A stretch of DNA of 64,000 nucleotides. Source: an uncultured Clostridia bacterium (lineage in GTDB: Bacteria; Bacillota; Limnochordia; Darwinibacteriales; DTU012). Each line of letters opens with the position of its first letter. Positions within the stretch are counted from its first letter, which is position 1. The stretch covers positions 2,796-66,795 of the forward strand of contig FIZJ01000007.1 of assembly GCA_900019385.1 (NCBI GenBank). Direction: 5' to 3'. A program made the translations under genes and the position numbers. This document shows, piece after piece, positions 5,310 through 59,881 of this stretch. Below the pieces are notes generated by a model, which made no database searches, was not told the origin of the DNA, and saw only the letters and a list, made by a program, of their open reading frames with translations.

Positions 5310-6230
5310 CTAGTAATTTCTGACAATAAGTTCCGAAATCAAGCCTCTTCCACGTCCATTGCAGTTTATGCTTCGCTTTGCGCGGACACGGTCAATAGTG
5401 AAACCTTGATAAAGACTGTCAAGAAAACTATCGTCAGCGTTTACCGCCTTTGGATCAGAATTGCTGAGCAGAAGCAGCGCTCCTATCTCGTCCAATTCTC
5501 GGAAATAGTGGGCTAGGCGAATCTGATCATCGTCTGTGAAATCATCCTTATTGTAGGTAGTGAAGCTGGCGGTTTTTGTCAGCGGACGGTAAGGCGGATC
5601 GAAATACCCTAAAGTTCCGGGGCCGATATAGGGCCTGGAACAGGTAAAATCGCCGCAGACCAGCTTGACGCCTGCCAATGCTCTGCTCACTGCTCTTATG
5701 TTGTCGGCATCACAGATTTTCGGCTTTTTATACCTGCCGTGGGGGACGTTGAACTCACCCTTGTGATTTTGACGAAACAAGCCGTTATAACAAGTCTTGT
5801 TTAGGAAAATCATATAGCTGGCCCGCACAATCCAGTCTTCGTTAAAAGACTGATAGTCAAATTGGTTCATCTGCTGGTTATATTGTTCCCGTATACCATA
5901 ATAAAACACTCGGCGCGCCTGGGAGCCCAATGCCAGATAGTCTCTTTCAAGCTTGCTCAAACACGCAATCAAAGCATCCGGTTCTTGCTGGACAACCTTA
6001 TAACCAAGTATCAATTCTCTGTTGATGTCAACCAAACAGGCATTTTCAATGACAAACATGCTCTTCAAATGAAAGAAAAAAGCTCCACCACCGATAAAGG
6101 GCTCCACATAGGTTTTGATTACGCCTGATTCTTTGATTTCACGCGGTAGACGGGCAGTCAACTCACGCAGCAGTTGGGTTTTACCTCCTGCCCACTTAAG
6201 AAAGGGTTTTGCCTGCACCGGTTTGTTCAC
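5310..6230 (-). CDS. dam: Dam-type (D12 class, alpha group) DNA N6-adenine methyltransferase, orphan
   Basis: 306-aa ORF with FLKWAGGK (AdoMet-binding motif I) and DPPY (motif IV) in alpha-group order. The gene is about 40% GC against about 60% flanking. Strong GGAGGAAGGGGGG ribosome-binding site. No restriction endonuclease nearby. Confidence 0.85.
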   Translation of the reverse strand: MNKPVQAKPFLKWAGGKTQLLRELTARLPREIKESGVIKTYVEPFIGGGAFFFHLKSMFVIENACLVDINRELILGYKVVQQEPDALIACLSKLERDYLALGSQARRVFYYGIREQYNQQMNQFDYQSFNEDWIVRASYMIFLNKTCYNGLFRQNHKGEFNVPHGRYKKPKICDADNIRAVSRALAGVKLVCGDFTCSRPYIGPGTLGYFDPPYRPLTKTASFTTYNKDDFTDDDQIRLAHYFRELDEIGALLLLSNSDPKAVNADDSFLDSLYQGFTIDRVRAKRSINCNGRGRGLISELIVRNY

Positions 6231-6426: not shown

Positions 6427-7068
6427 TCACGCCATACTGGCACAGGCTTGAACAGCCACTTCCGCGGCGGACGCGGCATCAGGCGCGTAAAGGTCAGCGC
6501 CGATGCTGGCGCGGAATTGGTCGGTGACCGGCGCGCCGCCGATCATGATCTTGACCTTGTCTCTGATTCCCGCTGTTTTGGCGGCCTCCACGATCAGCTT
6601 CATTTCGTTCATGGTGGTTGTCAACAGCGCCGAACAGGCAATAATCTGCGCCTGCTCCTGAACAGCTGTCTCGATAAACTTCTCAACCGGCACATCAATA
6701 CCGAGGTCGATCACTTCGAGGCCTTTGCCTTCCATCATCATCCGCACCAGATTCTTGCCGATGTCATGGAGATCGCCCTTCACGGTGCCCAAGACCACTT
6801 TGCCTTTTGCCTTGACATCGTCCGAGACCAGCAGAGGCTTCAAAAGGGCGGTCCCGGCGTTCATGGCTCTAGCGGCAATCAGGACTTCCGGGACAAAAAT
6901 CTCGTTGTTTTTAAACTTGACACCGACAACGTCCATGCCGGCCATCAGGCCTTTTTCCAGAATCTCCTGGGCTGAAAACCCTTCGTCGATTGCCTGCTGC
7001 ACCAGTTCTTTGACAGCGCTGGCGTTTCCCTGCTGCAGTTTTAGGGAAATCTCATTCAGGATGCTCAT
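6427..7068 (-). CDS. Corrinoid (cobalamin-binding) protein, MtaC/MtbC-like: helical cap plus B12-binding Rossmann domain
   Basis: 213-aa ORF with the DxHxxG cobalamin-ligand motif (GDLHDIGKN) and the downstream glycine-rich MIGGAPV motif. GGAGGG ribosome-binding site. Co-oriented with, and 24 bp downstream of, the AraC gene. Confidence 0.8.
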   Translation of the reverse strand: MSILNEISLKLQQGNASAVKELVQQAIDEGFSAQEILEKGLMAGMDVVGVKFKNNEIFVPEVLIAARAMNAGTALLKPLLVSDDVKAKGKVVLGTVKGDLHDIGKNLVRMMMEGKGLEVIDLGIDVPVEKFIETAVQEQAQIIACSALLTTTMNEMKLIVEAAKTAGIRDKVKIMIGGAPVTDQFRASIGADLYAPDAASAAEVAVQACASMA

Positions 7069-7092
7069 CGTATACCCTCCAATACCAGTGTT

Positions 7093-8322
7093 TTATTTAA
7101 TCTGACCGCGTGTTTCCCTGAACTTGCCTGGAGTGGTTCCGGTCATTTTTTTGAACACCCGTGTGAAATAACTTTGGTCCTCAAACCCTACCAGGCTTGA
7201 TACGTCCGCCAGAGGGATAGCTTCGTTCACCAGCAGGTTTTTGCTCTTCTCGATCCGCACAGTGTTGAGATATGTGGTGAAATTGTAACCTGTTTCTTCC
7301 TTGAACAGCCTGCTGAAATAAGCCGGGCTTAAATGGACGTAGCTGGCTGCATCCTCGAGGGTTAGCCTTTCCATGTAGTTGTTGTTGGTGAATTCAATCG
7401 CCTTATATATTATATCCTTGTTTTTGACATTCTTAAAGTTAAACACACAGTCGGTGAAGCGGGTCAGGATTCTGGAGAGCCAGACGCTCAGCTCCTCAAT
7501 GTTGTGCAGGCGAGACACTTGGTTGAGGTATTGGTTGTTCAGACCGAAGATCTCTTCCTGTTCCGCCCCGCCTTCCATTGCCGCCCGGGAAAGAAGGACC
7601 ACAAGTTCCAACGACCGGTATTTTATATCCTCGAAGTCGTTTTGGCCGGTAAAAAACACGTAGCCCAGGATCTCGTTGAGCACTCGCAGGGATCCGGCTT
7701 TGTCGCCCACGGCCACATGTGAGATCAGCTCATTTTCCTTGTCGATTGGGTAATTCTTGTGTCTCGCCCCACCAAGGTAGGTTTGGGGATCGGAAGCGGG
7801 TATGGGGCTGTCCATAGGATCCGGCAAATGCCGTTTGTCATCTGCGGCTGCGTATCCGGCGAGCAGGTACAACAGTTCAGACAAGCTCGTAACCACATCA
7901 GGCTTGATTACCGGTATCTGATCCATGTGCGCTCTAAGCCGCCGCCGCGCTTTTTGATCCGGGATCTGCTGCTCGATGATTTCATCCAGCAGAAAGGCTT
8001 CCGGTTCTATCATCATCACCGGGCCGCCGACAAAAGCGCCCTTGAACTCCTCGCCGCGGTTGATGGGCGCCACCCAGTGAGTAAGCCCCATCGGGCAGAA
8101 GTAGATGTACCTGCCCCCAAACCGCTCCGCCTGATAACTGCCGTACAAATGGACGTTCGCACAATCGCACAAGTGGGCGAAACCATCCTGGACAGCTTCG
8201 CAGAACGGGCTGCAGCTTTTGAGGGCATGGTAGACAACGGACCCGGCGCCGTCGATAATGAAGCTGGAAACTCCCGTCGCCTTGCTGTAATGATCGATCC
8301 ACTGCCTGATCTCTTGAATCAT
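7093..8322 (-). CDS. AraC-family transcriptional regulator with an N-terminal PocR-type ligand-sensing domain
   Basis: 409-aa ORF. The C-terminal AraC helix-turn-helix pair is recognisable (…LEDAASYVHLSPAYFSRLFKEETG…IPLADVSSLVGFEDQSYFTRVFKKMTGTTP). The N-terminal ~200 aa resemble the PocR sensory domain. Confidence 0.75.
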   Translation of the reverse strand: MIQEIRQWIDHYSKATGVSSFIIDGAGSVVYHALKSCSPFCEAVQDGFAHLCDCANVHLYGSYQAERFGGRYIYFCPMGLTHWVAPINRGEEFKGAFVGGPVMMIEPEAFLLDEIIEQQIPDQKARRRLRAHMDQIPVIKPDVVTSLSELLYLLAGYAAADDKRHLPDPMDSPIPASDPQTYLGGARHKNYPIDKENELISHVAVGDKAGSLRVLNEILGYVFFTGQNDFEDIKYRSLELVVLLSRAAMEGGAEQEEIFGLNNQYLNQVSRLHNIEELSVWLSRILTRFTDCVFNFKNVKNKDIIYKAIEFTNNNYMERLTLEDAASYVHLSPAYFSRLFKEETGYNFTTYLNTVRIEKSKNLLVNEAIPLADVSSLVGFEDQSYFTRVFKKMTGTTPGKFRETRGQIK

Positions 8323-8462
8323 GTGCCCGCCCTTCCTTACCTTTCGGTTATATTCTAAACGATCCTGGAACCGGGATCAATGCGGCCGTGGAAAAAGTGC
8401 AGGGGAAAGGCGCCTTCGAGTAGAATAGACAAACAGGAACAAACCATGAGAGGGGAGACGCT

Positions 8463-9767
8463 ATGGGTTTCAAGCTTCGAGTTGGATTACTGGCAGTATT
8501 ATTGATATTGACATGTTCGCAGTTGGCAGGTGCGCAGTACAGCATTCCTCTCACTTCGCAGCGGGCATTCGAGGTTGCGGACAATATCATCGCCTGGCAG
8601 ACCGAGGCTGGTGGGTGGACCAAGAATACTGACTTCTCAAAGGTCATATACCAGCCGGGCATGTCCAGAGGAGAGCGGGCCATAAACGGCCAGGAAGCCG
8701 GGTGCTTCGACAACAATGCCAGCATCAACGAAATGAAGTTTCTAGCCATGATGTACGCACGGCACGGAATCGAGAAGTATCGGGACGCCGTCATCAAAGG
8801 CATCGACTGGATGCTGGACGCCCAGTACCCAAGCGGTGGCTGGCCGCAGTATTATCCGCTCATCGGCGGTTACCATGACAACGTGACCTTCAATGACGGC
8901 GCCATGATGAATGTGCTCAATTATATACAGGAGATCCTGAGGTACCGCGGGCTGTACGAGTTCTTGGGCGAAGAGCGCTTTGCCCGCCTGGAAGCCGCTT
9001 TGGAAAAAGGCATCGACTATATTCTCAAATCCCAGATCCGAGTCAACGGTTACCTCACAGCCTGGTGCCAGCAGCATGATCCAGTTACGTACGAACCGAA
9101 AATGGGGCGGAGCTATGAGCATCCGTCCATCGTCTCGGCGGAATCGGTCCCGATTGTGGAATTTTTGATGGCTCTGCCCGATCCGTCGGAAGAAGTGCGC
9201 CGGGCGATTGTGGGCGCGGTGGAGTGGTTTGAAATTTCCCAGCTGCCGAACGGCCAGTGGGCACGCTTTTACGATATTCAGTCCAATGTCCCGATCTTTT
9301 CGGGGCGGGACGGGATTATCCGCTATGACGTGAAAGACATCGAACTGGAGCGGCAGCAGGGTTACAGCTGGTTCAACGGCAGCGGCGGCAATCTATTGTC
9401 CAAGGCCCGGCGTGATGGGTACATTGACACGCTGCGGCAAAGCCTGCCCGATTACAAACCCCTCACCATCGATGTCTTCGCTGATCCGGCCGTTCCCAGG
9501 GTCATAAGCCCCAAGATCTGGCCCACTCAGACTGTAAGCGGCGTTCTCGCCGTCGAGGTCGAGATCTCCATGCGCAATCCGGAAAACCTGCGGGAAGTGG
9601 CCATCAAGATCAACAATCAAGAAATCTACCGCGGCAGCGATCTCCACATCCAGGTGCCGGTCGACACCACCGCGTTCCGCAATGGAACTTGCACCATCGC
9701 TGTAGAGACCACGACCACACTCGGGACATCCCTGTCCCACTACGTCAATTTCATTGTGGCAAATTAA
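8463..9767 (+). CDS. Secreted pectate lyase, PL10 family (PelA/Pel-15E type), with an extra C-terminal beta domain
   Basis: 434-aa ORF with a signal peptide (MGFKLRVGLLAVLLILTCSQLAGAQ). Motifs AWQTEAGGWTKN and YPSGGWPQYY are typical of (alpha/alpha)3-barrel PL10 lyases. Confidence 0.7.
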   Translation: MGFKLRVGLLAVLLILTCSQLAGAQYSIPLTSQRAFEVADNIIAWQTEAGGWTKNTDFSKVIYQPGMSRGERAINGQEAGCFDNNASINEMKFLAMMYARHGIEKYRDAVIKGIDWMLDAQYPSGGWPQYYPLIGGYHDNVTFNDGAMMNVLNYIQEILRYRGLYEFLGEERFARLEAALEKGIDYILKSQIRVNGYLTAWCQQHDPVTYEPKMGRSYEHPSIVSAESVPIVEFLMALPDPSEEVRRAIVGAVEWFEISQLPNGQWARFYDIQSNVPIFSGRDGIIRYDVKDIELERQQGYSWFNGSGGNLLSKARRDGYIDTLRQSLPDYKPLTIDVFADPAVPRVISPKIWPTQTVSGVLAVEVEISMRNPENLREVAIKINNQEIYRGSDLHIQVPVDTTAFRNGTCTIAVETTTTLGTSLSHYVNFIVAN

Positions 9768-9780
9768 AACCAGACAACAA

Positions 9781-9825
9781 GGCCAACTTCAAGCCCTGTG
9801 GACTTGCAAGTTGGCCTTTCTTTTT
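9781..9825. terminator. Bidirectional rho-independent terminator between the convergent PL10 and URO-D genes
   Basis: GGCCAACTT-gap-AAGTTGGCC hairpin followed by TTTCTTTTT. It overlaps the stop codon of the minus-strand gene. Confidence 0.6.
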
Positions 9826-10909
9826 ACACCGGCTCTTTCACGGCTTCAAACAGCGCCTCGATATTCGCCGGATCCACATCGGGAAGAATCGCTTCATGGC
9901 TCGGCGAGATAATCAGGCCAGTGGGGAAGATGCGTTTCAACTCCTGCACCTTGTCTTTGACCTGCTTAGGGGTGCCGTTGATCAAGAGCCACTGGGCGTC
10001 CACACCGCCGCAGAAAGAGACTTTGTCGCCGAAATCCCGCTTCAATCTCTCCGGTTCCATGTCTTTGGCCAAGGCCTGAATAGGATGGATGACATCGACG
10101 CCTGCGGCAATCAGATCGGGAATGACGGGATAGATTGATCCACAGGAATGATAAATAACCTTCAACCCGTAACTCTTGGCCTGTTCAATGAATTTCCTGG
10201 TACCCGGCATGACAAATTCCCGTATCGCATCCGGAGAGACCATCAATCCCCGCTGGCTGCCGAAGTCATTGCCGATCAGAATGGCGTCCAGCTTGCCTTT
10301 GGTGGCGCTGTAGAAGATCTCGTTGGCTTCAAGGTAGAACTGGGTGATGCGGTCGATTACAGCCCGGAACATTTCCGGCTCGGTCAGCATCTTCACCAGA
10401 GCGGTTTCCATGCCGAAGGCCGAACAGGCGTCTTGAAAGTGCGCCGACCACAAAACGCCCATGATTGGGTGGCCTGGCGGCGCGGCCTCCACCGCTCGGC
10501 GGCATCGGTCCGGATCAATATGTTTCGCCGGATCGGGCCAGTCGAAGTCATCAACGCGGCTGGGATCGGAATAGTCTTCAAAGAAGCCGGGCGCAGTCAG
10601 AGTCCTTTGATCGGGTGTGTTAGCCTTTTTGGCAAACTGAAGGGCGGTGTAAATCGCCTTGCTGTCGGGGGCGTCATAGGGGATCTCCACCGGATAGATG
10701 TCGTCCCCGATCTTTAGTTTCAGCTCGTCGATATCGCCGACGTCGAAATAGGCAAAGAGCCGTTCGCAGGCTTCCGGCACAGGCAGGCCAAGCCAAGACG
10801 CGGGCCTGTCCACCGGCCTTCTTTCCACTGTGGCGAAAAAACGTTCCTTAGGATCCATGGCATTCTTCCTTTCTCGCAGCAAATACCGGTCACTGAATTG
10901 ATTCACCAT
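9824..10909 (-). CDS. Uroporphyrinogen decarboxylase (URO-D)/MtaA-like family methyltransferase
   Basis: 361-aa ORF. N-terminal KERFFATVERRPVDRP and the HSCG motif (IYHSCGSIYPVIPDLIAAGVDVIHP) are characteristic of URO-D/MtaA/CmuA-family proteins. Confidence 0.72.
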   Translation of the reverse strand: MVNQFSDRYLLRERKNAMDPKERFFATVERRPVDRPASWLGLPVPEACERLFAYFDVGDIDELKLKIGDDIYPVEIPYDAPDSKAIYTALQFAKKANTPDQRTLTAPGFFEDYSDPSRVDDFDWPDPAKHIDPDRCRRAVEAAPPGHPIMGVLWSAHFQDACSAFGMETALVKMLTEPEMFRAVIDRITQFYLEANEIFYSATKGKLDAILIGNDFGSQRGLMVSPDAIREFVMPGTRKFIEQAKSYGLKVIYHSCGSIYPVIPDLIAAGVDVIHPIQALAKDMEPERLKRDFGDKVSFCGGVDAQWLLINGTPKQVKDKVQELKRIFPTGLIISPSHEAILPDVDPANIEALFEAVKEPV

Positions 10910-10955
10910 TTTTTAATAATCATTCGCTAAAATTAATCGATCCCCTTCAGCCGGG

Positions 10956-10984
10956 TTGAACTCCTCCGGTGGGCGTGCTATGCT
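10956..10984 (+). promoter_or_regulatory. Candidate sigma-A promoter for the FGE-BNR gene
   Basis: TTGAAC, 17-nt spacer, TATGCT; located about 30 nt upstream of the ribosome-binding site. Confidence 0.3.
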
Positions 10985-11015
10985 TTGAGTAAACCACTGG
11001 AAAGCGGGTGGATGA

Positions 11016-13226: not shown

Positions 13227-13265
13227 GATGAGGCCTTCGGTTTCCTATAAAATTTAGTTAACATA

Positions 13266-13294
13266 TTGACGAAAATTTAGCTAAACAGTAAACT
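13266..13294 (+). promoter_or_regulatory. Candidate promoter of the 13351→33971 operon, with embedded palindromic motifs
   Basis: TTGACG, 17 nt, TAAACT. The spacer contains the perfect palindrome TTTAGCTAAA. An upstream direct-repeat copy AAAATTTAGTTAAC lies at 13249-13262. Confidence 0.4.
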
Positions 13295-13350
13295 AAAGAT
13301 AGAGGCGCTCCTGATCAATACAAGATTATAGATTAGTTTGGAGGAATAGC

Positions 13351-18260: not shown

Positions 18261-18270
18261 AGGAGTGGGT

Positions 18271-18618
18271 ATGGCGATGGCCGAGAAAGAGTTTCACAAG
18301 CGTTTGCATGAAGAAAAGACAGTGGAGATGCTGCCGGGCGTTTTCCGCACCACTTTGGCGTACAATGGGGCGCTGATGCTGTGCCACTTTCACATGAAGA
18401 AGGGGGCCAAGATCCCTCTCCACAGCCATGAAGCGGCTCAAATCGGCTATGTGATCAAAGGGAAAGTGCGCTTTTTCACCAAGGATGGGCAGGATATCGT
18501 TGTCGAGCCCGGTTCCAGCTACGTCTTTGATTCCCGCCAAGAGCACGGCTCGGATGTGCTGGAGGATACAGAGCTGATCGAATGCTTCACCCCGATGCGG
18601 CCTGAGTACATTGTGTGA
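18271..18618 (+). CDS. Cupin-domain protein (possible sugar isomerase/epimerase)
   Basis: 115-aa ORF with a GGAGTGGG ribosome-binding site. His-rich two-motif cupin pattern (HSHEAAQIGYVIKG…EHG). Confidence 0.55.
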   Translation: MAMAEKEFHKRLHEEKTVEMLPGVFRTTLAYNGALMLCHFHMKKGAKIPLHSHEAAQIGYVIKGKVRFFTKDGQDIVVEPGSSYVFDSRQEHGSDVLEDTELIECFTPMRPEYIV

Positions 18619-20509: not shown

Positions 20510-21454
20510 ATGAAGAAGACCAATAAAATGCCATGCCGGAAAGCGTTCACAGAAACTCTCTTGGAACTGGCCCGAAAAGACAGGGACATTGTCGCCCTGA
20601 CCAGCGATGCCAGGGGTTCCGTGACTTTGGAGCAGTTTGCCAAGGAACTGCCGGAGCAGTTTGTGGAAGTGGGCATTGCCGAGCAGAACTTGGTGGGAAT
20701 TGGGGCTGGTTTGGCCGCCTGCGGCAAGAAACCGTTTGTCTGCGGCCCCGCCTGTTTCCTTTCTGCCCGCAGCCTTGAGCAGGTCAAGGTGGATGTGGCC
20801 TACAGTGATTTGAATGTGAAGATAATTGCCGTAAGCGGTGGTGTCAGCTACGGGGCTTTGGGTTCGACCCATCACGCCGTCCATGACCTGGCGGTGATGC
20901 GGGCGATTCCCAACCTGACTGTCGTGCTGCCGTGCGACGTGCATCAGACCAGGAAGCTCACGGAAGCCCTGGTTGATTACAAAGGCCCGGTTTATGTGCG
21001 CATGGGCCGGGGAGCGGTCGCCGACGTGTACTCGGAAGCTCACGTTCCTTTCGCAATCGGGCGGGCCAATGTCCTTCTCGACGGCAAGGACCTGGCAATC
21101 ATCGCCGCGGGCGAGACGGTGCGCCACGCGCTGGATGCGGGCTTGGCCTTGAAAAAACAGGGTGTAAGCGCCCGGGTGATCGACATGCACACGATCAAAC
21201 CGCTGGATCAGGAAACAGTGCTGCAGGCTGCCTGTGACACTGGAAACCTGATCACTGTTGAAGAGCACAGCGTTTACGGCGGCCTTGGATCGGCCGTGGC
21301 CGAGTTGGTGGCCCAGAATTATCCGGTGCGGATGCGGATTCTGGGCATACCGGACGAGCCTGCCGTCACCGGAGAATCATCCCAGGTGTTCAAGTATTAT
21401 CAGCTGACAGGCGACGAGATCGTCCAGGCGGCCTTGGCCATGCTGGATGTGTGA
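20510..21454 (+). CDS. Transketolase C-terminal subunit, copy 2
   Basis: …FVEVGIAEQNLVG…; paralog of 16255-17211. Confidence 0.85.
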   Translation: MKKTNKMPCRKAFTETLLELARKDRDIVALTSDARGSVTLEQFAKELPEQFVEVGIAEQNLVGIGAGLAACGKKPFVCGPACFLSARSLEQVKVDVAYSDLNVKIIAVSGGVSYGALGSTHHAVHDLAVMRAIPNLTVVLPCDVHQTRKLTEALVDYKGPVYVRMGRGAVADVYSEAHVPFAIGRANVLLDGKDLAIIAAGETVRHALDAGLALKKQGVSARVIDMHTIKPLDQETVLQAACDTGNLITVEEHSVYGGLGSAVAELVAQNYPVRMRILGIPDEPAVTGESSQVFKYYQLTGDEIVQAALAMLDV

Positions 21455-21468
21455 AAGGAGACAGAAGT

Positions 21469-23367
21469 ATGAGTTTTGAATGGCGCCGCGGGCAAAATCA
21501 GCTTTATGCCGGTGAAGAGCTCATTGGGGAACTGTGCGTTGACCTTCCGGATAAGGCAGTCATTGAAGACAGTGCCGTGGACCAGATCAAACCTGGTGTG
21601 TTCAGGATAGATCTGTCGGTTCTTGTCAAGGAACCGGTGGAGCAGTTCCGGTTGGTTTTGGAGTTCAAAGCCCATTACCAGGCCGATTGGGCTATGATTC
21701 CCGCAGTCAGCTACAACGGGAATCATTGGGGCAGGGGGAACGAACCGAAAGGTTTCACGAAGGACGGTATCCCCTGGGCTTTTTCCTACAGCCGGGCATC
21801 GGTGCCGGGAGCCACTTACTCTGAAGGTTCCCGCTGGGCTGTGGGCCTGTTCGGGGATTTGCGCGCTTCGGACGCCCCGTTTTCCTGTTCACTGCTTCCC
21901 GAGCAGGAACAGGTGGTTCACCGCCTGATCTGGCCGGAAGAAGAAAGCCCTGACACCTATTATATGAAGAACCGGTACCAGGAAGGGTTTCAGCGGCAGA
22001 TCAGCCTGGACGCGGGTGCAAGATTCAAAGCTGGCGCCTATCTGGTCGCGGCGGAGGTGCGCACACCGAAGCTGTCCTATGGTCATCTGCTGGATTTCGC
22101 CTGGGAGGTGAACTATCACCGCCAAAAGCCCTGGTATTCCCCGGAAGAGCTGTGGCGCTTAGGCCTGCACTATGCCAAGCACAGCCTGTATGTGGAAGAA
22201 GGGATTTACCGCGGTTTTTCCAAAGGGCTGCGCTGGAACGGGGCAGAATGGCGCCTCAGGCCCACCGCCAGGTACCTGGCCGGCTGGACAGGGCAGAACA
22301 TATCGTTGGCCAATTCCATGATCCACAGCTATATCATGAGCGGCAGCGAGGAAGACCTACAGATCGGCCTCAACACTTTGCGGACATGGGCTGTCCATGC
22401 CCGCTTGGACAATGGACTGATTTACTGCTTGTTTGATCCGATCCTGGACGGAGGCGCGGAGAATGCTGTCCAGGATGCCTGCAACCTTTCGGATGCGGCA
22501 GTGAACTTTTTCGAAGCCTGGGAACTCTTAGGAAAGATCGGGTTTGAAGACGAGAGGGAACTGTGCAAAGAAACAGCCTTGGGCATCTGCGGCTTTGCCC
22601 TGTCACACCAGTTTCCCGACGGCAAGTTCGGCAAGTCTTGGAACAATGCCGGCGAATGTGTCGATCCCAACGGCACCATTGGCTGTTACCTGGTCCTGCC
22701 CTTGTTGAAGGCGTACCAAGTAACTGGGGAGCGGAAGTATTTGGACGGCGCCGTGCGCGGCTGGGAGTACTATGCCGAGAGCTTCTCAAAGGACGGCTAC
22801 ACCTCGGCTGCGGCGCTTGACACATACTGTATCGACAAGGAATCGGCGATTCCTCTGTTAAAGAGCAGCATCGCGCTTTATGGACTTACCCGGGAACAAA
22901 GGTATCTTGAGATGGCTGAACTGGCTTCATATTATCTGGCGAGCTGGCAGTGGCATTACACCGCGCCGTTCCCGGAAGGCACACCGCTTTTTGAAATGGG
23001 CTACGACACCTTTGGCGGCACATCTGTCTCCGCGCAGCATCATCACCTGGATCCCTTCGCCCTGGTGTTCGTGGAAGACTGGTTCAAACTTGCGGAATAC
23101 ACCAGCCGGGATATCTGGCGGCAGCGGGCAAAGGCCGTTTGGGCCAACGCCTCCATGGGCGTGTCCGACGGCTCGTTGGTGGTCAACGGAGTGCGAAGGC
23201 CAACCGGCAGCCAGGACGAAGGCTTTTTCCACACATATTGGGGAGCGCCCAACCAAAACACGGGCGATCCTATGGGCAATGTCAGTTATTGGCTGGTGGC
23301 CTGGCCAACCGCCTTCCGGCTGCAGGTGCTGCGTCGCTTGTCCGACTGGCGGCAGCTGACAGATTAG
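21469..23367 (+). CDS. Hypothetical protein of 632 aa, possibly an (alpha/alpha)-toroid glycoside hydrolase/lyase-like enzyme
   Basis: AAAGGAGA ribosome-binding site. No signal peptide. Aromatic-rich and helix-rich composition. No motif I can assign to a known family. Embedded in the sugar operon. Confidence 0.35.
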   Translation: MSFEWRRGQNQLYAGEELIGELCVDLPDKAVIEDSAVDQIKPGVFRIDLSVLVKEPVEQFRLVLEFKAHYQADWAMIPAVSYNGNHWGRGNEPKGFTKDGIPWAFSYSRASVPGATYSEGSRWAVGLFGDLRASDAPFSCSLLPEQEQVVHRLIWPEEESPDTYYMKNRYQEGFQRQISLDAGARFKAGAYLVAAEVRTPKLSYGHLLDFAWEVNYHRQKPWYSPEELWRLGLHYAKHSLYVEEGIYRGFSKGLRWNGAEWRLRPTARYLAGWTGQNISLANSMIHSYIMSGSEEDLQIGLNTLRTWAVHARLDNGLIYCLFDPILDGGAENAVQDACNLSDAAVNFFEAWELLGKIGFEDERELCKETALGICGFALSHQFPDGKFGKSWNNAGECVDPNGTIGCYLVLPLLKAYQVTGERKYLDGAVRGWEYYAESFSKDGYTSAAALDTYCIDKESAIPLLKSSIALYGLTREQRYLEMAELASYYLASWQWHYTAPFPEGTPLFEMGYDTFGGTSVSAQHHHLDPFALVFVEDWFKLAEYTSRDIWRQRAKAVWANASMGVSDGSLVVNGVRRPTGSQDEGFFHTYWGAPNQNTGDPMGNVSYWLVAWPTAFRLQVLRRLSDWRQLTD

Positions 23368-23381
23368 GGGAGGGACGCTGG

Positions 23382-24497
23382 ATGCAGTATGCCATGAAGT
23401 ATGTCGAGGACTGGGAGGCTGTCAAAGCCCGCTTTGCGGCCTGGTGGCAGGGAAAGAATCCCGGCCGGCCGCTGATGAGAATTGTCGCCAGGCGGGAACA
23501 GCCCCTTGAAGAGCTGGAGCCCGCTTGGAAAGCGAAGACATTTGTGGACAAACATCTGGAAGTGGAGCGGAAAGTGGTCAACATGCGGAACTACTGCCGC
23601 ACCCGCCGGTTTTTCGCCGAAGCGTTCCCTTCCTTGGATTTGAATATAGGCGCCGGATCGTTCGCCGTTTATCTGGGGCTGGAACCCATTTTTGATCAGA
23701 ACACGGTCTGGTTCCCGGAATGCATCGACGACTGGGACAGCTGGGGAGAATTCCGGTTTGATCCGGACAATCACTGGTGGCAGCGGCATTATCAGGCGAT
23801 CCGGCAGGCGGTGGAGCTCGCTCAAGGGGATTTTCTAGTCAACATCCCTGATATCATCGAAAACCTGGATATTCTCGCCGCCATGCGGGGGGCTCAAAAC
23901 CTCTGCTTAGATTTGATCGACCAGCCGGATGTGATCAAGGCCCGGCTGGAGCAGCTTGACGCTCTGTATTTCCAGTACTATGACCGCTTTTATGATTTGG
24001 TCAAGACTGAGGACGGCGGCAGCAGCTACACGACTTTCAGTATTTGGGGCCCGGGACGGACGGCCAAGATTCAGTGTGATTTTTCCGCCATGATCTCCCC
24101 GGCCCATTTCCGGGAATTTGTCCTGCCGTCCCTCAGGAAACAGTGCCTCAGCCTTGACTGCTCCCTTTACCACCTGGACGGGCCCGACGCAGTCAAGCAC
24201 GTGCCGGCTTTGATGGAAATCGAGGAACTGAACGCTCTGCAGTGGACACCCGGGGCAGGGCAGCCTGACGGAGGCAGCCCTCAATGGTTCCCGATTTATG
24301 ACCAGGTGATCGCCGCCGGCAAGTCATTGTGGATTATGTTCTCCGGGAAGCAGGGCAAATTCGATGATTGGACCGAGGCGGCGGACCGGATAGTGGAGCG
24401 CTACGGCCCGGAGAAACTATACTTCATCTTTCCGGAGATGTCGGAAAAAGAAGCGGAAGCCTTGATGGCGAAAGCAGAACGGGATTGGGCGAGGTAG
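23382..24497 (+). CDS. Divergent URO-D/MtaA-like family protein
   Basis: GGGAGGGA ribosome-binding site. Local similarity to the 9824-10909 protein (CDFSAMISPAHFREFVLPSLRK vs NDFGSQRGLMVSPDAIREFVMPGTRK). The HxxG region is replaced by LYHLDGPDAV. Confidence 0.4.
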   Translation: MQYAMKYVEDWEAVKARFAAWWQGKNPGRPLMRIVARREQPLEELEPAWKAKTFVDKHLEVERKVVNMRNYCRTRRFFAEAFPSLDLNIGAGSFAVYLGLEPIFDQNTVWFPECIDDWDSWGEFRFDPDNHWWQRHYQAIRQAVELAQGDFLVNIPDIIENLDILAAMRGAQNLCLDLIDQPDVIKARLEQLDALYFQYYDRFYDLVKTEDGGSSYTTFSIWGPGRTAKIQCDFSAMISPAHFREFVLPSLRKQCLSLDCSLYHLDGPDAVKHVPALMEIEELNALQWTPGAGQPDGGSPQWFPIYDQVIAAGKSLWIMFSGKQGKFDDWTEAADRIVERYGPEKLYFIFPEMSEKEAEALMAKAERDWAR

Positions 24498-34017: not shown

Positions 34018-34046
34018 TTGATCTTTTTTAGGCATGCCGATATAAT
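34018..34046 (+). promoter_or_regulatory. Strong sigma-A promoter of the GH29 gene
   Basis: TTGATC, 17 nt, TATAAT. The perfect palindrome GTTTTGCAAAAC lies downstream at 34067-34078. A copy of the TTTACTAAA motif lies at 34088-34102. Confidence 0.5.
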
Positions 34047-34115
34047 TTACTTTAGAAGCAAAGCTTGTTTTGCAAAACGCCAGGTTAAAATTTACTAAAA
34101 TCTCAACAAGTTTAG

Positions 34116-35480
34116 GTGAGGGGATCTGGAGGGTGGAGATTGAGCGAAGGCAAAATCCGGGAAATGACGGGTGATGAGCTGAAGTCGATGCTGAAGAGCA
34201 ACATCCAGTTGAAGAGCCTGGGAGGTGTGAAACATCCCGGTTTGAGGCTGGAGGAGGAAGACCTTGCCTGGTGGCGGGCGGCCAAGTTCGGGATGTTCAT
34301 TCATTGGGGGCTCTATTCAATCCTGGGCCGGGGAGAATGGGTCATGCACAATGAGAAAATCCCAGCCGAGGAATACCGGAAACTAGCGGACGAGTTCAAC
34401 CCCAAAGCCTTTGATGCCGACCGCTGGGCTCAGATTGCCAAGGACGCAGGCATGCGCTATATGGTCATGGTAGCCCGGCATCACGACGGTTTCGCCCTTT
34501 GGGACAGCCCCGGCAGCTATCAAGAGTTTACCAGTGTGAAGACAGCCGCCAAACGCGACTTTGTCAAGGAATACGTCGAGGCGTGCCGCCGGGCAGGCCT
34601 GCGGGTCGGTTTGTACTACTCCCTCATGGACTGGCGTTTCCCAGGATACTTCAAGCCCAAGGAACTTCTGGACAGCGCCTTGTTAATGAAAAAACAGTGT
34701 TATGACCAAGTCCGGGAGCTGATGAGCCAGTACGGCAAGATCGACATTCTTTGGTACGACGGAGCTTGGCTTGCCCATCAGGGACACGATCCTGACGCCG
34801 CCTGGCTGTGGGAGCCGGTGCAGCTGAATCAGATGGCGCGGGAATACAACCCGAAACTGCTGATCAACCCCCGTTCCGGGTGGGAAGGGGATTTTTACTG
34901 CGACGAAGGGTCCCATCCCATAAAAGGCAGCATCATTCCCGTACCTTGGGAAAAATGCCTCTGCATCGGAAGCGGTCGGTCCTGGGGCTGGATCCCCGAG
35001 GATCCGGTGATGGAATTCGACGACGCCATCCGCATGTTTGTCAATGTGTGGGCGCGGGACGGCAATGTCCTGCTGAATGTTGGGCCTGACAAAGACGGTG
35101 TGATTCCTGAGGAAGCGGTCGCCAGGCTCCAGGAGATCGGAGCTTGGATGCGGGCGAACGGAGAAAGCATTTACGGCACCCGCGGCGGCCCGTTCCAGCC
35201 TGTGGACGATGTGTACGGCAGTACATACAAAGACAGCACGATTTATATACATATTCTCGATTGGGAACGTTTCAGCGGTTTGCGTCTGCCTCCGCTTGAG
35301 GGCAGGGTGGTGGGGTGCCGGACGATCGGCGGTGAAGCGCTTGAGTTTGAGCAAAACGACGGCGGCATCGCTGTTTCTGTCCCGGAAGCCTTGGCGGAGC
35401 CCCCAGATACCATCGTGGCCCTGGAACTTGACAGGCCAGTACCGAAGCTGCCTCAGGACAGAATTTCATTCACAGGATGA
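34116..35480 (+). CDS. GH29 alpha-L-fucosidase
   Basis: FGMFIHWGLYS hallmark motif. Start is either GTG at 34116 or TTG at 34140; the latter is better spaced from the GGAGGGTGGAG ribosome-binding site. Confidence 0.85.
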   Translation: MRGSGGWRLSEGKIREMTGDELKSMLKSNIQLKSLGGVKHPGLRLEEEDLAWWRAAKFGMFIHWGLYSILGRGEWVMHNEKIPAEEYRKLADEFNPKAFDADRWAQIAKDAGMRYMVMVARHHDGFALWDSPGSYQEFTSVKTAAKRDFVKEYVEACRRAGLRVGLYYSLMDWRFPGYFKPKELLDSALLMKKQCYDQVRELMSQYGKIDILWYDGAWLAHQGHDPDAAWLWEPVQLNQMAREYNPKLLINPRSGWEGDFYCDEGSHPIKGSIIPVPWEKCLCIGSGRSWGWIPEDPVMEFDDAIRMFVNVWARDGNVLLNVGPDKDGVIPEEAVARLQEIGAWMRANGESIYGTRGGPFQPVDDVYGSTYKDSTIYIHILDWERFSGLRLPPLEGRVVGCRTIGGEALEFEQNDGGIAVSVPEALAEPPDTIVALELDRPVPKLPQDRISFTG

Positions 35481-35514
35481 CAGATTCTCCCACCCGGCAG
35501 GACACGGTGTTTGG

Positions 35515-35543
35515 TTGACAGCTGTTGATAAATAGAGTAAAAT
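35515..35543 (+). promoter_or_regulatory. Sigma-A promoter upstream of substrate-binding protein gene 1
   Basis: TTGACA, 17 nt, TAAAAT. The extended core TAGAGTAAAATGTAAACA is shared with the promoter at 37103-37131. Confidence 0.45.
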
Positions 35544-35704
35544 GTAAACACCTCGCAAGAATTGATAAGAAAATATTAGGTAAACGTTAAGTACGATACA
35601 TATTTTGCCAGGCAGGGGGGTGGAAGGGCGGCATAGACCAAACCCCGAGCAGCACGTAGTTTTGGTGGCGCGTGTCAGTAAAATCATGGAGAGGTGAGCG
35701 AGCA

Positions 35705-37045
35705 ATGAAAAGGCTGATACCGATTCTGTTGTTTGTTTTGATATTCGCCGCGGCAGCCCACGCCGAGGAAGTCAAACAAGTTATGGATTTGGGCGGCCGA
35801 GTGATCCGCATTCAGACACAGTGGGGTGGAGACACTCCGCTCGGGCCGAGAGGGGCCTACAACTGGTATAACCCTGACGAAATGCTGAAAGCCCACATCG
35901 AGAAAGTGGAGAAGATGTTCAACTGCAAGATCGAGTTCGTGCTCGAAGGCAACCGGGCAGACGCTCTTGAGACACTGCGCCTCAGCGTTCTTGCCGGGGA
36001 TAGGCCGTTTGACTTTTTCCAGCATTCGATTACTCCCGCATTGATCGCGGAAGGGCTGATCCAACCGCTTAACGATTACATCGGGCCCGATTTCTACGAT
36101 GCATATCCTTCCTTGTTCCGCCGCCCTGACCCGAGAATCGGGGCCGCGGTAGGTGACACCATCTACACCTTTGAGTCGTCCAACACTTCACCGGGGACCA
36201 AGTACATCCTTTGGAACAAGAGCATGGTGGAAAGGGCGGGCGTTGAGAGCCTCTACGATATTTACGAACGGGGCGAGTGGACCTGGGAAACTTTTGAGGA
36301 TGTGCTCCACAAGCTGACCAGGGACACTGACGGCGACGGCATCACCAATGTGTGGGGCATCCGCAGCATCAATCTCAAGGATGAGATCATAGTCATGCTG
36401 GTGTCCAACAGCGCCCGGGTGACAAAGACCACTGAGGACGGCAAGATCGTCTTTGACCTGCTTAATCCCCATGTCATCGATACGCTCGAATTCATGCAGC
36501 GCCTGTATCGAGACGGCGTTTGGGCCCGGCGCGGCCAGGCCGAGCTCGATGGCGCGGCGATGACCATCGCCACCGGTACCGATGTCACCAGCAAAGGCTA
36601 TCAAGATCACATGGCGTTGATCGGCGATGAATTCGGCCTGATGCTTCCGCCGCAGGGTCCAAACGGCAAGAATGAGTTCAATATGTATGCGGCAGCTTCC
36701 GGCGCAATACCGGTCTACGTGGAAGATCCGGAAGTGATCATCGAAGTTGTCAGCGCGCTGTGGATGGTCAAGGAACCCTACATCGAAGACATGGCGGCCT
36801 GGGAACAGGCATACTGGGATCGCTACATCTGGGGCCTGCAGGATGAAGAGTCTTACAATTTCCTTGTAAACCCCGACGTCGTGCCGGTGTTCCTGCCGTC
36901 GCCGATTGAGCGGGAAATCCTGTTCCCCAGCAGCACTCCGCCAGTATTTAACAGAATCATCGTCAACGGCGAAAGCGCAACCTCCGTTTTGGCTGCGGAA
37001 CAGCCGGTATTCCAGGCCCAGCTTGATGAAATCCTGAAGCAGTAG
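35705..37045 (+). CDS. Extracellular solute-binding protein of a carbohydrate ABC transporter (CUT1/Lpl-type), copy 1
   Basis: Signal peptide (MKRLIPILLFVLIFAAAAHA). About 446 aa. Paralog of 44299-45639 with roughly 75% aa identity. Confidence 0.72.
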   Translation: MKRLIPILLFVLIFAAAAHAEEVKQVMDLGGRVIRIQTQWGGDTPLGPRGAYNWYNPDEMLKAHIEKVEKMFNCKIEFVLEGNRADALETLRLSVLAGDRPFDFFQHSITPALIAEGLIQPLNDYIGPDFYDAYPSLFRRPDPRIGAAVGDTIYTFESSNTSPGTKYILWNKSMVERAGVESLYDIYERGEWTWETFEDVLHKLTRDTDGDGITNVWGIRSINLKDEIIVMLVSNSARVTKTTEDGKIVFDLLNPHVIDTLEFMQRLYRDGVWARRGQAELDGAAMTIATGTDVTSKGYQDHMALIGDEFGLMLPPQGPNGKNEFNMYAAASGAIPVYVEDPEVIIEVVSALWMVKEPYIEDMAAWEQAYWDRYIWGLQDEESYNFLVNPDVVPVFLPSPIEREILFPSSTPPVFNRIIVNGESATSVLAAEQPVFQAQLDEILKQ

Positions 37046-37065: not shown

Positions 37066-37105
37066 GACGGGAGAGTCCGCTTTGCCAAAAGCGGACTCCC
37101 TTTTG
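37066..37105 (+). terminator. Rho-independent terminator after substrate-binding protein gene 1
   Basis: Perfect inverted repeat GGGAGAGTCCGCTTTTG/CAAAAGCGGACTCCC followed by TTTTG. The T-tract overlaps the −35 of the next promoter. Confidence 0.65.
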
Positions 37106-37131
37106 ACATTATATATATAATATAGTAAAAT
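37103..37131 (+). promoter_or_regulatory. Sigma-A promoter of the NHL-Yip1 gene, and likely of the downstream ABC genes
   Basis: TTGACA, 17 nt (TTATATATATAATATAG), TAAAAT. TTAAGTAAATTG motif in the 5'UTR at 37164-37175. Confidence 0.5.
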
Positions 37132-37231
37132 GTAAGCAATTTAAGAATGAAACAAACGAACTGTTAAGTAAATTGTTTAGTTGTCTGTTTGGTCAGTGGC
37201 TGTCGACAGGTTTCGCCGAGGAGGACTCTTT

Positions 37232-45749: not shown

Positions 45750-47774
45750 ATGAAGTACGGCGTTTCGTATTATCCGGAACACAAGGATCAGGCTGAAATC
45801 GGCCATGATATCGCCCTGATGAAAGAGTTGGGCGTCAATCTGGCGCGGATGGGCGAGTTCGCCTGGTGCAAGTTTGAACCCCGGGAAGGGGAGTATGACT
45901 TTGCCTGGCTTGACCCAGTGATCGAACAGCTGGGGGAGAACGGGATCCAGACCATTGTCTGCACTCCGACTGCCTGCCCTCCGGCTTGGCTTGTGGAAAA
46001 GCACCCGGAGATCCTTTATGTGGACAACCGGGGAGTGGCCAGGCCCTTTGGCGGCAGGCGGCATTATTGTTACAACAACCCGGTCTATCGAGAGTACTCC
46101 CGCAGGATTGCCGAGGCGGTGGCCGCCCACTATGGGGACAACCCCTACGTTTACGCCTTCCAGATTGACAATGAACTGGCTCAGGAGGGGACAGGCCGGT
46201 GCCGCTGCCCGGTGTGCCGGGAGAAATTCCAGAGATGGCTTGAGGCCAAGTATGGGACGATAACCGAGCTAAACAGGAGAATGGGCACAATCTTCTGGGG
46301 CCAGGTTTATGATCATTTCGGCCAGATCCATCCCCCGGTGAACACTATTGAACCTAACACCGCACAGGCCATCCCCGCTTACTTTGAGAACCCGTCGCTG
46401 CGCCTGGATTTCGAGCGTTTCTGCAGCGAGTCCAATATTGAGTATCAAAACATCCAAAGAGATGCGATCAAAGCATACACCGACAAGCCGACAACCACCA
46501 ACGCCACAGGTTTGGCCACCAACAGCATCGATTATTACAGAGCCTTTCAGAATCTGGATGTGTACGCTTTCGACTATTACCCCAACCTGCGAGAGGGCAT
46601 GATCAGTTCCTTCCCGTATGCCCATGCGCGAGGGGTTTGCAATAAGGACTTCTGGCTGCTGGAGTTCGTTTCCGGCGGCGGCCACGGACTCTGGGGTTCA
46701 GGCAGGCTGCAGCCGTACCCCGGCGCCCTGCGCCAGGCGGCCGTCCATGCCTTCGCCGCCGGAGCGGATTTGGTGGCGCATTTTCAGTTTAGGACCTTCC
46801 CGTTTGGGGCGGAACAGCTGAACTATGCCATCGTGGATATCGACGGGATCCCCAGGCGCCGGTTCTACGAAATGCAGGCCGCCGCCAAGGATCTGAGGCA
46901 GCTTGGCTTGACACTGAAGAATTCCTACTTTGAGAACGAAGTTGCCGTCTTGTTCGATTATGATTCACTGTGGGCGCTGAAGATCAAGCCCATCGCCAAG
47001 GATTTCGACTACGCGCATTTCTGCGGCGAGTTCTACCACCAGCTGACCAGGCTGGGTGTGGGAGTCGATGTGATCTCGTTCGATCACGATCTGGACAAAT
47101 ACAAGGTTGTGATCGTCCCAGCCCCCATGATTATGAGCGAAGCGTTCAAGCGGCGTTTGAAACAATACGTCTACAACGGAGGCGTTTTATTATCCACGTT
47201 TCTTGCGGGGGTGAAAAACCTGGACAATCTGGGGATCACCGAGTCCCTGCCTTGTGGGCTTACTGATCTGTTCGGGATCAGAGTCGGGGAAGTGGAACCG
47301 GTGGTGGAGAGCACAGCCGCCGCTGTCACCCTGGACACCGGCACCGGCTGTGCCCGGGGTATGAACAGGTACTGGGCGGAAACCCTCGAACCAAACGGGG
47401 CGGAGCTGATCGGCACATACACCGGCAACTTCCGGGAAGGTATCGGTGTTATCAGCAAAAACAGCTACGGCAAGGGCACAGCATATTACCTGGGCACAGG
47501 CCTGGAGCCGGATCTTCTGAAAACCCTCTTGAAGAGGGTTGTGGAGGAAGGCGGGGTTGCCGGGCTGCCGTTCGCGGTCCCAGAGGGTGTGGAAGTGCTT
47601 GTGCGGAAGTACAACCACCAAAATTTGTACTGCATCTTCAATTTCTGCAAAGAACCAGCGGCAGTGGAGCTTGAGCGAGCCTACCACGATGTCCTGCGGG
47701 GCGCTGCTGTCGATGGGCTGGCGGAACTGCCGCCGAAAGGGTATCTGTTCTTATTGGAGGAGGGATGGGATTGA
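45750..47774 (+). CDS. GH42 beta-galactosidase (YesZ/BgaB-like)
   Basis: YGVSYYPEH start. Cys cluster GRCRCPVCREK (GH42 Zn site). IDNE acid/base region. AGAGGGGA ribosome-binding site. Confidence 0.85.
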   Translation: MKYGVSYYPEHKDQAEIGHDIALMKELGVNLARMGEFAWCKFEPREGEYDFAWLDPVIEQLGENGIQTIVCTPTACPPAWLVEKHPEILYVDNRGVARPFGGRRHYCYNNPVYREYSRRIAEAVAAHYGDNPYVYAFQIDNELAQEGTGRCRCPVCREKFQRWLEAKYGTITELNRRMGTIFWGQVYDHFGQIHPPVNTIEPNTAQAIPAYFENPSLRLDFERFCSESNIEYQNIQRDAIKAYTDKPTTTNATGLATNSIDYYRAFQNLDVYAFDYYPNLREGMISSFPYAHARGVCNKDFWLLEFVSGGGHGLWGSGRLQPYPGALRQAAVHAFAAGADLVAHFQFRTFPFGAEQLNYAIVDIDGIPRRRFYEMQAAAKDLRQLGLTLKNSYFENEVAVLFDYDSLWALKIKPIAKDFDYAHFCGEFYHQLTRLGVGVDVISFDHDLDKYKVVIVPAPMIMSEAFKRRLKQYVYNGGVLLSTFLAGVKNLDNLGITESLPCGLTDLFGIRVGEVEPVVESTAAAVTLDTGTGCARGMNRYWAETLEPNGAELIGTYTGNFREGIGVISKNSYGKGTAYYLGTGLEPDLLKTLLKRVVEEGGVAGLPFAVPEGVEVLVRKYNHQNLYCIFNFCKEPAAVELERAYHDVLRGAAVDGLAELPPKGYLFLLEEGWD

Positions 47775-59765: not shown

Positions 59766-59816
59766 TTTAGCTCTGCTGTTTCAGGCCTGTTCGGGCCGTG
59801 GATTTTACTAAACATG

Positions 59817-59845
59817 TTGACGAAATTTTAGTAAATTGGTAAACT
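59817..59845 (+). promoter_or_regulatory. Candidate promoter of the LacI-family regulator gene, with flanking inverted AT-rich motifs
   Basis: TTGACG, 17 nt, TAAACT. TTTTACTAAAC at 59803-59813 and its near-inverse ATTTTAGTAAATT at 59824-59836 bracket the −35. Same architecture as 13266-13294. Confidence 0.4.
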
Positions 59846-59881
59846 ATATACAAAACCAGTGGTTGAACTGAGGTTGATCTA

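Follow-up and report, generated by a model that had tools for sequence, protein, structure and literature searches.

LacI-family repressors that lack the Ala and Leu residues of the hinge have been grouped as an 'EbgR-like' subfamily, with operators centred on one C or G (Francke et al., 2008; PMC2329647). Its members, which include E. coli EbgR and the GalR, LacR and RafR proteins of L. plantarum, are marked by an insertion before helix 3 (NDDPTLNV or HDDSLSV) and by an Arg in the recognition helix (TVSR); the operators described comprise O1 (AAATTTAGTAAAATT) and O2 (ATTTTTACTAAAATT) of S. mutans GalR, that of L. delbrueckii LacR (TTGTTTACTAAAAAT) and that of S. thermophilus GalR (TTTTAGTAAAA) (PMC2329647). 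Among LacI-family transcription factors as a whole, odd palindromes are found in about 4% and autoregulation in 72% of the cases, the distances between sites peak at 22 bp, which has been ascribed to cooperative LacI-family dimers, and for some regulators, such as RafR and ScrR, double sites about 21–22 bp apart are obligatory (Ravcheev et al., 2014; PMC4052901). GanR (LacR) of B. subtilis binds AGTAAA/TTTACT hexamers, as established by EMSA and mutagenesis (PMC5472308); the layout used here for comparison, AGTAAA-N4-7-TTTACT, was reconstructed from the primers given in that study.

Here, a stretch of 64,000 nucleotides (hereafter, the window) was analyzed, and a regulon map was drawn for a pectin-side-chain and apiose-type locus of an uncultured anaerobic-digester Bacillota, with five candidate promoters, their candidate operators and a candidate repressor. 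An earlier note on this DNA had pointed to an AT-rich palindrome, TTTA-N1-2-TAAA, recurring in several promoter regions. All of the strings that it quoted were found in place (34088–34102, 37164–37175, 59803–59813 and 59824–59836; AAAATTTAGTTAAC at 13249–13262; AAAATTTAGCTAAAC at 13272–13286, with TTTAGCTAAA within the spacer of its promoter), as was the promoter skeleton TTGACG-17-TAAACT, common to 13266–13294 and 59817–59845. Its description of the motif was apt, since conservation is seen for an odd (N1) as well as for an even (N2 = GC) form; the motif is a palindrome of 13–15 bp with the core TTTA-S-TAAA, and an even variant, TTTWGCWAAA, is also present. Overlooked at the time were the palindrome GTTTTGCAAAAC (34067–34078), a half-site (34044–34056) and a weak site at a fifth promoter (35530–35544). 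As detailed below, the motif most probably represents the operator of the LacI-family repressor encoded at 59882–60895, which would be autoregulated.

Sites were scored with a palindromised weight matrix of 15 columns, built from 13 sites that all come from promoters of regulator orthologues in other contigs (L001, L011, L013, L014, L016, L020 and L024); the window was left out of the matrix to avoid circularity. Promoter P_iso (TTGACG-17-TAAACT; 13266–13294, + strand), located by a consensus scan and conserved in the related contigs L041, L043 and L044, is preceded by a candidate operator, AAATTTAGTTAACAT (13250–13264, centre G13257; 15.1 bits), just upstream of the −35. The P_iso spacer holds an even-palindrome site (13274–13287; core TTTAGCTAAA at 13276–13285, centre 13280.5), which is strictly conserved in L041–L044, lies 23.5 bp from the upstream site and falls outside the fit of the odd matrix. 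Promoter P_lacI (TTGACG-17-TAAACT; 59817–59845, + strand), also conserved in orthologues, has one candidate operator just upstream of its −35 (GATTTTACTAAACAT; 59801–59815, centre C59808; 18.5 bits) and a second in its spacer (AATTTTAGTAAATTG; 59824–59838, centre G59831; 20.4 bits); the latter is 23 bp from the former and forms a perfect 9-nt inverted repeat with 59804–59812. Promoter P_GH29 (TTGATC-17-TATAAT; 34018–34046, + strand; conserved in L033 and L032) is followed by a half-site that overlaps the −10/+1 region (AATTTACTTTAG; 34044–34056, centre C34050), the counterpart of which in L033 is TATAATTTAG, by the perfect even palindrome mentioned above (centre 34072.5), 22.5 bp from either of its neighbours, and by a strong candidate operator in the GH29 leader (AAATTTACTAAAATC; 34088–34102, centre C34095; 19.8 bits, P = 0.0015 within its own AT-rich gap). 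At P_NHL (TTGACA-17-TAAAAT; 37103–37131, + strand), the candidate operator TAATATAGTAAAATG (37118–37132, centre G37125; 14.9 bits) lies over the −10 and a weaker site, CTGTTAAGTAAATTG (37161–37175, centre G37168; 12.5 bits), follows 43 bp away. The earlier note had listed only the second of these (as 37164–37175); it is present, but of moderate strength, and the site over the −10 of the same promoter is the better match. Finally, a weak site, AAATAGAGTAAAATG (12.0 bits), lies over the −10 of P_SBP (TTGACA-17-TAAAAT; 35515–35543, or 35515–35544 with the site, + strand), and its assignment is tentative.

The centre-to-centre distances are thus 23 bp at P_lacI, 23.5 bp at P_iso, twice 22.5 bp at P_GH29 and 43 bp at P_NHL; distances of 21.5–23 bp are also found in L014, L016, L028, L032 and L033, and a spacing of 21.5–23.5 bp recurs across nine promoter contexts. 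The window spacings agree with those of cooperative double sites, which are about 22 bp, or two helical turns, apart. Relative to the predicted promoters, P_iso and P_lacI have their sites at about −48 and −24, where they flank and fill the spacer, P_GH29 at about −3, +20 and +42, and P_NHL at about −13 and +30; such positions all point to a repressor and not to an activator. Palindromes of the even type (TTTWGCWAAA) lie 21.5–23.5 bp from odd sites in the window (13276–13285 and 34067–34078), in L014 (at 1423 and 7694) and in L032 (at 4328), and their presence near odd sites in several unrelated promoters suggests that the repressor tolerates one extra central base. Two other layouts were considered, one in which two 9-mers 23 bp apart are the half-sites of a single long, CytR-like dimer site, and one in which the −35 and −10 hexamers yield an outward, GanR-like AGTAAA-N4-TTTACT arrangement; neither was adopted, because each 9–13-mer is itself palindromic and single sites exist (for example, in L034).

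The promoters are not all independent of each other. P_iso and P_lacI are probably copies of one ancestral promoter: in L013 (4100–5290) a single promoter of this kind follows the same FGE-sulfatase/BNR gene and drives lacI-isomerase, and P_iso (13227–13350) and P_lacI (59766–59881) look as if they had arisen from this arrangement by duplication and splitting. P_SBP and P_NHL are likewise similar (35515–35549 and 37103–37137 share TTGACA-17-TAAAATGTAA), which likely reflects another promoter duplication. The five promoters therefore amount to about three independent promoter families; the recurrence of the motif reported earlier is real as far as the sites are concerned, but two of the promoters on which it was based are probably not independent occurrences. 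In P_iso and P_lacI, even the −35 (TTGACGAAA) and −10 (GTAAACTAA/GGTAAACTA) regions look like degenerate copies of the motif (13263–13277, 13288–13297, 59814–59828 and 59839–59849), so that a unit repeats roughly every 10–13 bp across the promoter. What looks like the terminator of the SBP gene, a perfect 11-bp stem (GAGTCCGCTTT/AAAGCGGACTC) with a run of T after it, lies at 37073–37098, immediately ahead of the NHL promoter.

The four gaps that bear the motif are the most AT-rich intergenic stretches of the window (33–39% GC), and chance within AT-rich DNA therefore had to be excluded explicitly; for the window as a whole, we measured a GC content of about 55–56%, and not the 58% or so that had been claimed for the genome. 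Our test of specificity covers the 64 kb of the genome that the window represents. The five best matches of the matrix, which in descending order of score start at 59824, 34088, 59801, 13250 and 37118, all lie in the four AT-rich promoter gaps. Five matches of at least 14.5 bits were obtained against 0.26 expected, in agreement with the proposal that a chance origin is unlikely, and three of at least 18 bits against 0.01 expected from shuffles of the whole window. For the three gaps that are not orthologous to the training set, there were three matches of at least 14.5 bits against 0.12 expected, and none of 2000 dinucleotide-preserving shuffles of the gaps equalled this result; AT-richness as a full explanation is ruled out by these shuffles of the gaps themselves. 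The string AATTTAS occurs six times in the 64 kb, each time within the four AT-rich gaps. The remaining intergenic gaps of the window, including those around the PocR/AraC gene, reach at most 6.5 bits, save for 10910–11015 (12.7) and 35481–35671 (12.0). CcpA/cre sites or other CG-centred palindromes were also considered as the true operator and rejected, since the motif gaps contain neither a cre-like palindrome nor one centred on CG. A text search of the literature for the 9-mers returned irrelevant papers only.

The motif precedes the orthologues of the regulator gene in eight of nine independent lineages (55–94% protein identity), with the same architecture at 63–94% identity. In the seven lineages in the latter range, the sequence upstream of P_lacI is unalignable and invariance begins exactly at the first site (59801–59815 in the window), with an invariant order of TTTA-Y-TAAA, then TTGAC, then the second site; the arrangement kept by these orthologues can be written as TTTACTAAA-N7/8-TTGACK-spacer(TTTAGTAAA). 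The spacer site is the perfect palindrome AATTTAGTAAATT in L001, L002 and L020, and sites are retained by the orthologues at 63–65% identity (L014, L016 and L024). The Halocella orthologue, at 55% identity, heads a lacI-transketolase-kinase-ABC-isomerase operon, and sites lie in front of it. The single exception is the orthologue in L018 (59% identity), for which no site of at least 14 bits was found within the 173 bp of upstream sequence scanned.

Conservation extends to the other promoters. The P_iso orthologues of three lineages (L041, L043 and L044; isomerases 75–86% identical) share a nearly invariant 55-bp core, AAAATTTAGTTAACAT-TTGACG-AAAWTTTAGCTAAACAG-TAAACT-AAAG, between divergent flanks; the site at 13250–13264 is invariant, and the near-invariance of the core means that conservation includes the even palindrome TTTAGCTAAA, although the odd matrix does not accommodate it. 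The GH29 loci in L032–L034 retain sites at the corresponding promoter: L033 keeps TTGATT-17-TATAAT-TTAG and, downstream of it, two sites separated by 22 bp, L032 retains TTGATC as well as one site, with TTTTGCTAAA 21.5 bp away, and L034 has a site of 21.2 bits directly upstream. In L014, sites are also found before an ABC-transporter operon and near an apiosidase gene. In the related contigs, the regulator orthologues adjoin the same isomerase, FGGY kinase, split transketolase, Pfam 'Apiosidase' (PF13204), PdxA and DUF1537 genes. The same matrix finds a pair of sites spaced by 23 bp in L028, before an EbgR-like/GalR-like gene divergent from galK, and, in a 12-kb stretch of E. coli K-12 (L035), three matches of at least 18 bits against 0.01 expected, all in the ebgR upstream and ebgR-ebgA regions (NC_000913.3: 3221268–3221282, upstream of ebgR, and 3222542–3222568, two overlapping sites before ebgA; 18.0–21.0 bits).

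The LacI-family regulator (59882–60895, + strand; ELGYKKTRERSKHSAIRIII, with the recognition helix VSPATVSNALNN) was delineated by Pfam and by alignment with PurR and with orthologues. It combines a LacI-type helix-turn-helix domain (PF00356) with a sensor domain (PF13377 and PF00532), and its best match in the PDB is PurR (9e-41); as is general for LacI/GalR repressor–operator pairs, palindromes lie near both the regulated promoters and its own. The hinge helix of PurR, SPSAVARSL(KV), aligns to ELGYKK-TRERSKHS-AIRIII in the regulator: the PNxxARxL hinge motif (Ala51/Leu54) is absent from it and from all 16 aligned orthologues, and at the hinge position the orthologues, down to 52% identity, have a variable linker rich in Lys, Ser and Asn. 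The regulator and all orthologues have TVSNALN in place of the usual TVSR, and the group has NNKPGVS without the EbgR-type insertion before helix 3, an insertion that is present in EbgR and in the L028 protein. Against the NCBIfam models, the regulator scores 205 bits for RbsR, 195 for PurR and 118 for EbgR (rank 9), whereas EbgR ranks first for the L028 protein (250 bits); with the DNA-binding domain alone, EbgR ranks seventh for the regulator. In a neighbour-joining distance tree with LacI, PurR, GalR, RbsR, CytR and EbgR of E. coli and the L028 protein, the regulator group forms a clade of its own, about equally distant from L028 (0.73) and PurR (0.74). Judged from sequence, the system would work like an EbgR-type repressor–operator pair, with a protein that has no clear membership in the EbgR-like clade. 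A rule by which every hinge-less regulator would have this motif was rejected, since the proteins of L009, L010 and L029 are hinge-less yet have no upstream site. A bolder reading, which we put forward tentatively and hold to be possible rather than probable, is that the LacI family has a third hinge-less lineage, not described before, of which the regulator is a member. This lineage would be widespread among anaerobic Bacillota (Halanaerobiales, Clostridia and Negativicutes) and associated with apiose-type genes; it would have reached or retained EbgR-type recognition with an Asn for the Arg of the recognition helix and with a variable basic linker, and would thereby read both odd and even palindromes.

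Compared with the EbgR-like systems, the locus has the same core (TTTA-[C/G]-TAAA, one C or G at its centre rather than CG), the same lack of the hinge Ala and Leu and the same placement of sites upstream of the regulator gene. However, the window regulator forms its own clade, does not have the 2-residue insertion before helix 3 and has an Asn for the Arg of TVSR; its effector domain is closer to PurR and RbsR, the associated genes are of the apiose/pectin type rather than galactoside genes, and the window also has the conserved even variants TTTAGCTAAA and TTTTGCAAAA. With GanR, it shares the hexamers, paired sites beside or overlapping the −35, autoregulation (predicted in our case), a plant-polysaccharide operon and tolerance of variable spacing, but the GanR hexamers face outward and are 4–7 nt apart, whereas those of the window overlap by 3 nt within a 9-bp core. 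The spacing of 21.5–23.5 bp in the window and related loci, as well as the sites at the regulator's own gene, as expected for autoregulation, recall the double sites of RafR and ScrR, which, unlike those found here, are canonical even palindromes with a central CG. The protein belongs to the same family as LacI, PurR and CcpA (PF00356 and a sensor like the periplasmic binding proteins), and repression by promoter occlusion, predicted here, would also be shared with these canonical regulators; the differences are the lack of a central CpG and of an intercalating hinge Leu, a shorter core and extreme AT-richness. The lack of a hinge helix for insertion at a central CpG, as occurs in LacI, PurR and CcpA, fits an operator without a central CG and a tolerance of odd and even spacing.

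Since nothing distinguishes the motif from the published GalR/LacR operators (PMC2329647) or from the sites in the E. coli ebg and L028 galK-galR regions, and since the local regulator has no clear place in the EbgR-like clade, the sites could be real operators that are bound by another EbgR/GalR/LacR-type LacI protein encoded elsewhere in the genome, or that are shared by such a protein with the local regulator. We regard this as improbable: the motif tracks the orthologues of the local regulator and their own promoters, in eight of nine lineages and with a fixed architecture at 63–94% identity, it does so also at loci with no other regulator, and the gene partners are of the apiose type, not gal or lac. 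Less probable still is that no dedicated factor is involved, and that the sites are furniture of AT-rich promoters (UP-element-like tracts or extended promoter context), the two most similar promoters being mere duplicates. The confinement of all sites to the four gaps of 33–39% GC, the descent of P_iso and P_lacI from a single ancestral promoter and the likeness of the −35 and −10 hexamers to degenerate motif copies would be in line with such an origin; against it, pooled dinucleotide shuffles of the AT-rich gaps reached the observed scores in none of 2000 trials, the sites are palindromic with a specific central C or G, they are conserved at non-homologous promoters and even downstream of the start (about +42 at P_GH29), and the motif equals operators verified experimentally in other species.

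The earlier note had also named an AraC protein as a possible controller, and the PocR/AraC-family regulator (7093–8322), the only other regulator gene within the window, might in principle act on these promoters through the motif. This is extremely doubtful: together with B12-binding and URO-D-like genes, its gene makes up a divergent module of its own, the neighbouring gaps are free of the motif (scores of at most 6.5 bits), and related, orthologous loci have the motif but no PocR/AraC gene. Proteins of the AraC type usually activate from direct repeats upstream of the −35, not from palindromes over the −10/+1 region. The other part of the earlier proposal, in which the LacI-family protein controls a regulon and its own gene through a shared operator, is supported by the statistics, by the orthologous promoters and by the match to published operators.

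With the LacI-family protein as the repressor, which is the reading that we favour, control of the locus can be pictured as follows. Each site would present TTTA and TAAA arms around a single central C or G, or around a GC centre in two conserved cases, to a repressor dimer, and dimers, probably cooperating, would occupy arrays with sites about two helical turns (21.5–23.5 bp) apart. Bound within and beside the −35/−10 spacer (P_iso and P_lacI), or over the −10/+1 region and the early leader (P_GH29 and P_NHL), they would block polymerase binding or escape. Five units would be held off in this way, namely isomerase to SDR, GH29, SBP (tentatively), NHL to GH2, and lacI-kinase-GH95. The controlled span would run roughly from 13.3 to 62.4 kb (about 49 kb) and comprise glycosidases of the pectin/RG-II type and an apiose-type route of isomerase, kinase and transketolase. 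A sugar inducer would free the repressor from its sites; judging from the conserved gene partners only, our guess is D-apiose or a derivative.

The genes under these promoters, all on the + strand, were assigned with Pfam. Putative operon 1 (13351–33971; same strand, short gaps) codes for a Fucose_iso_C isomerase, a racemase-like protein, two split transketolases, a transaldolase, a cupin, a GH43/32-like enzyme and two proteins without a family match, as well as for a DUF1537-type acid-sugar kinase, PdxA, a DHDPS-like aldolase, a pectate lyase, a GH31, an enolase-superfamily protein and an SDR. An apparent gap of 350 bp within it (18261–18610) was considered as the site of an internal promoter and rejected, as it is occupied by a small cupin ORF (18270–18610; Cupin_2 in the orthologous L041). 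The GH29 alpha-L-fucosidase gene (34140–35480), the true start of which is probably the TTG at 34140, corresponds to a 100%-identical protein of 446 aa (P0121), and is followed by the SBP gene (35672–37045). Putative operon 2 (37181–59765) codes for NHL/Yip1, DUF5696, ABC permeases, an SBP, a GH42, an unassigned protein of 907 aa, a URO-D-like protein, a GFO/IDH oxidoreductase, a BT_1020-like/sialidase-like protein, an MGH1-like GH and a GH2. Downstream of the regulator, an FGGY-family sugar kinase gene (60915–62396), read as co-transcribed with it, is followed immediately by a GH95-like ORF (62410–64000) that runs off the window end, and the three look like one transcription unit. By analogy with the published D-apiose pathways, this gene set looks like one for the utilization of apiose and rhamnogalacturonan-II.

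Our literature search on apiose regulators and on the regulation of such loci found no study of this system. Galactose and lactose repressors already provide examples of this operator type; the locus departs from them modestly, in that its regulator falls into a separate hinge-less clade and that odd and even variants occur together in phased arrays. The link between the lack of a hinge helix and an AT-rich operator centred on a single C or G would thereby extend beyond the galactoside regulators, for which it was first described, and the locus would offer a natural case of odd/even spacing tolerance, of use for studying DNA recognition by LacI proteins that lack the hinge. Annotation pipelines that search for palindromes with settings adapted to even motifs centred on CG would overlook this regulon. 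If the readings of a third hinge-less lineage and of arrays phased at 22.5 bp are true, one repressor would act as the master switch of a pectin/RG-II-type locus of about 49 kb.

Several other features of the window were noted. Three large ORFs (21451–23367, 23139–24497 and 47765–50488; 638, 452 and 907 aa) gave no match in Pfam or NCBIfam; homologues of the three adjoin regulator, PdxA, DUF1537-kinase or GH29 genes in L013, L016, L033 and L034. As the first two have 229 nt in common, the true start of the second is probably later. Within the pectin-degradation locus, genes for a B12-binding protein, the PocR+AraC regulator and two URO-D/MtaA-like proteins (6427–10909 and 50508–51653) look like a corrinoid methyltransferase module, possibly for the demethylation of methylated sugars; the operator motif is absent from the gaps of this module. 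A gene for a Dam-type (D12 class) N6-adenine DNA methyltransferase lies at 5310–6230 on the minus strand.
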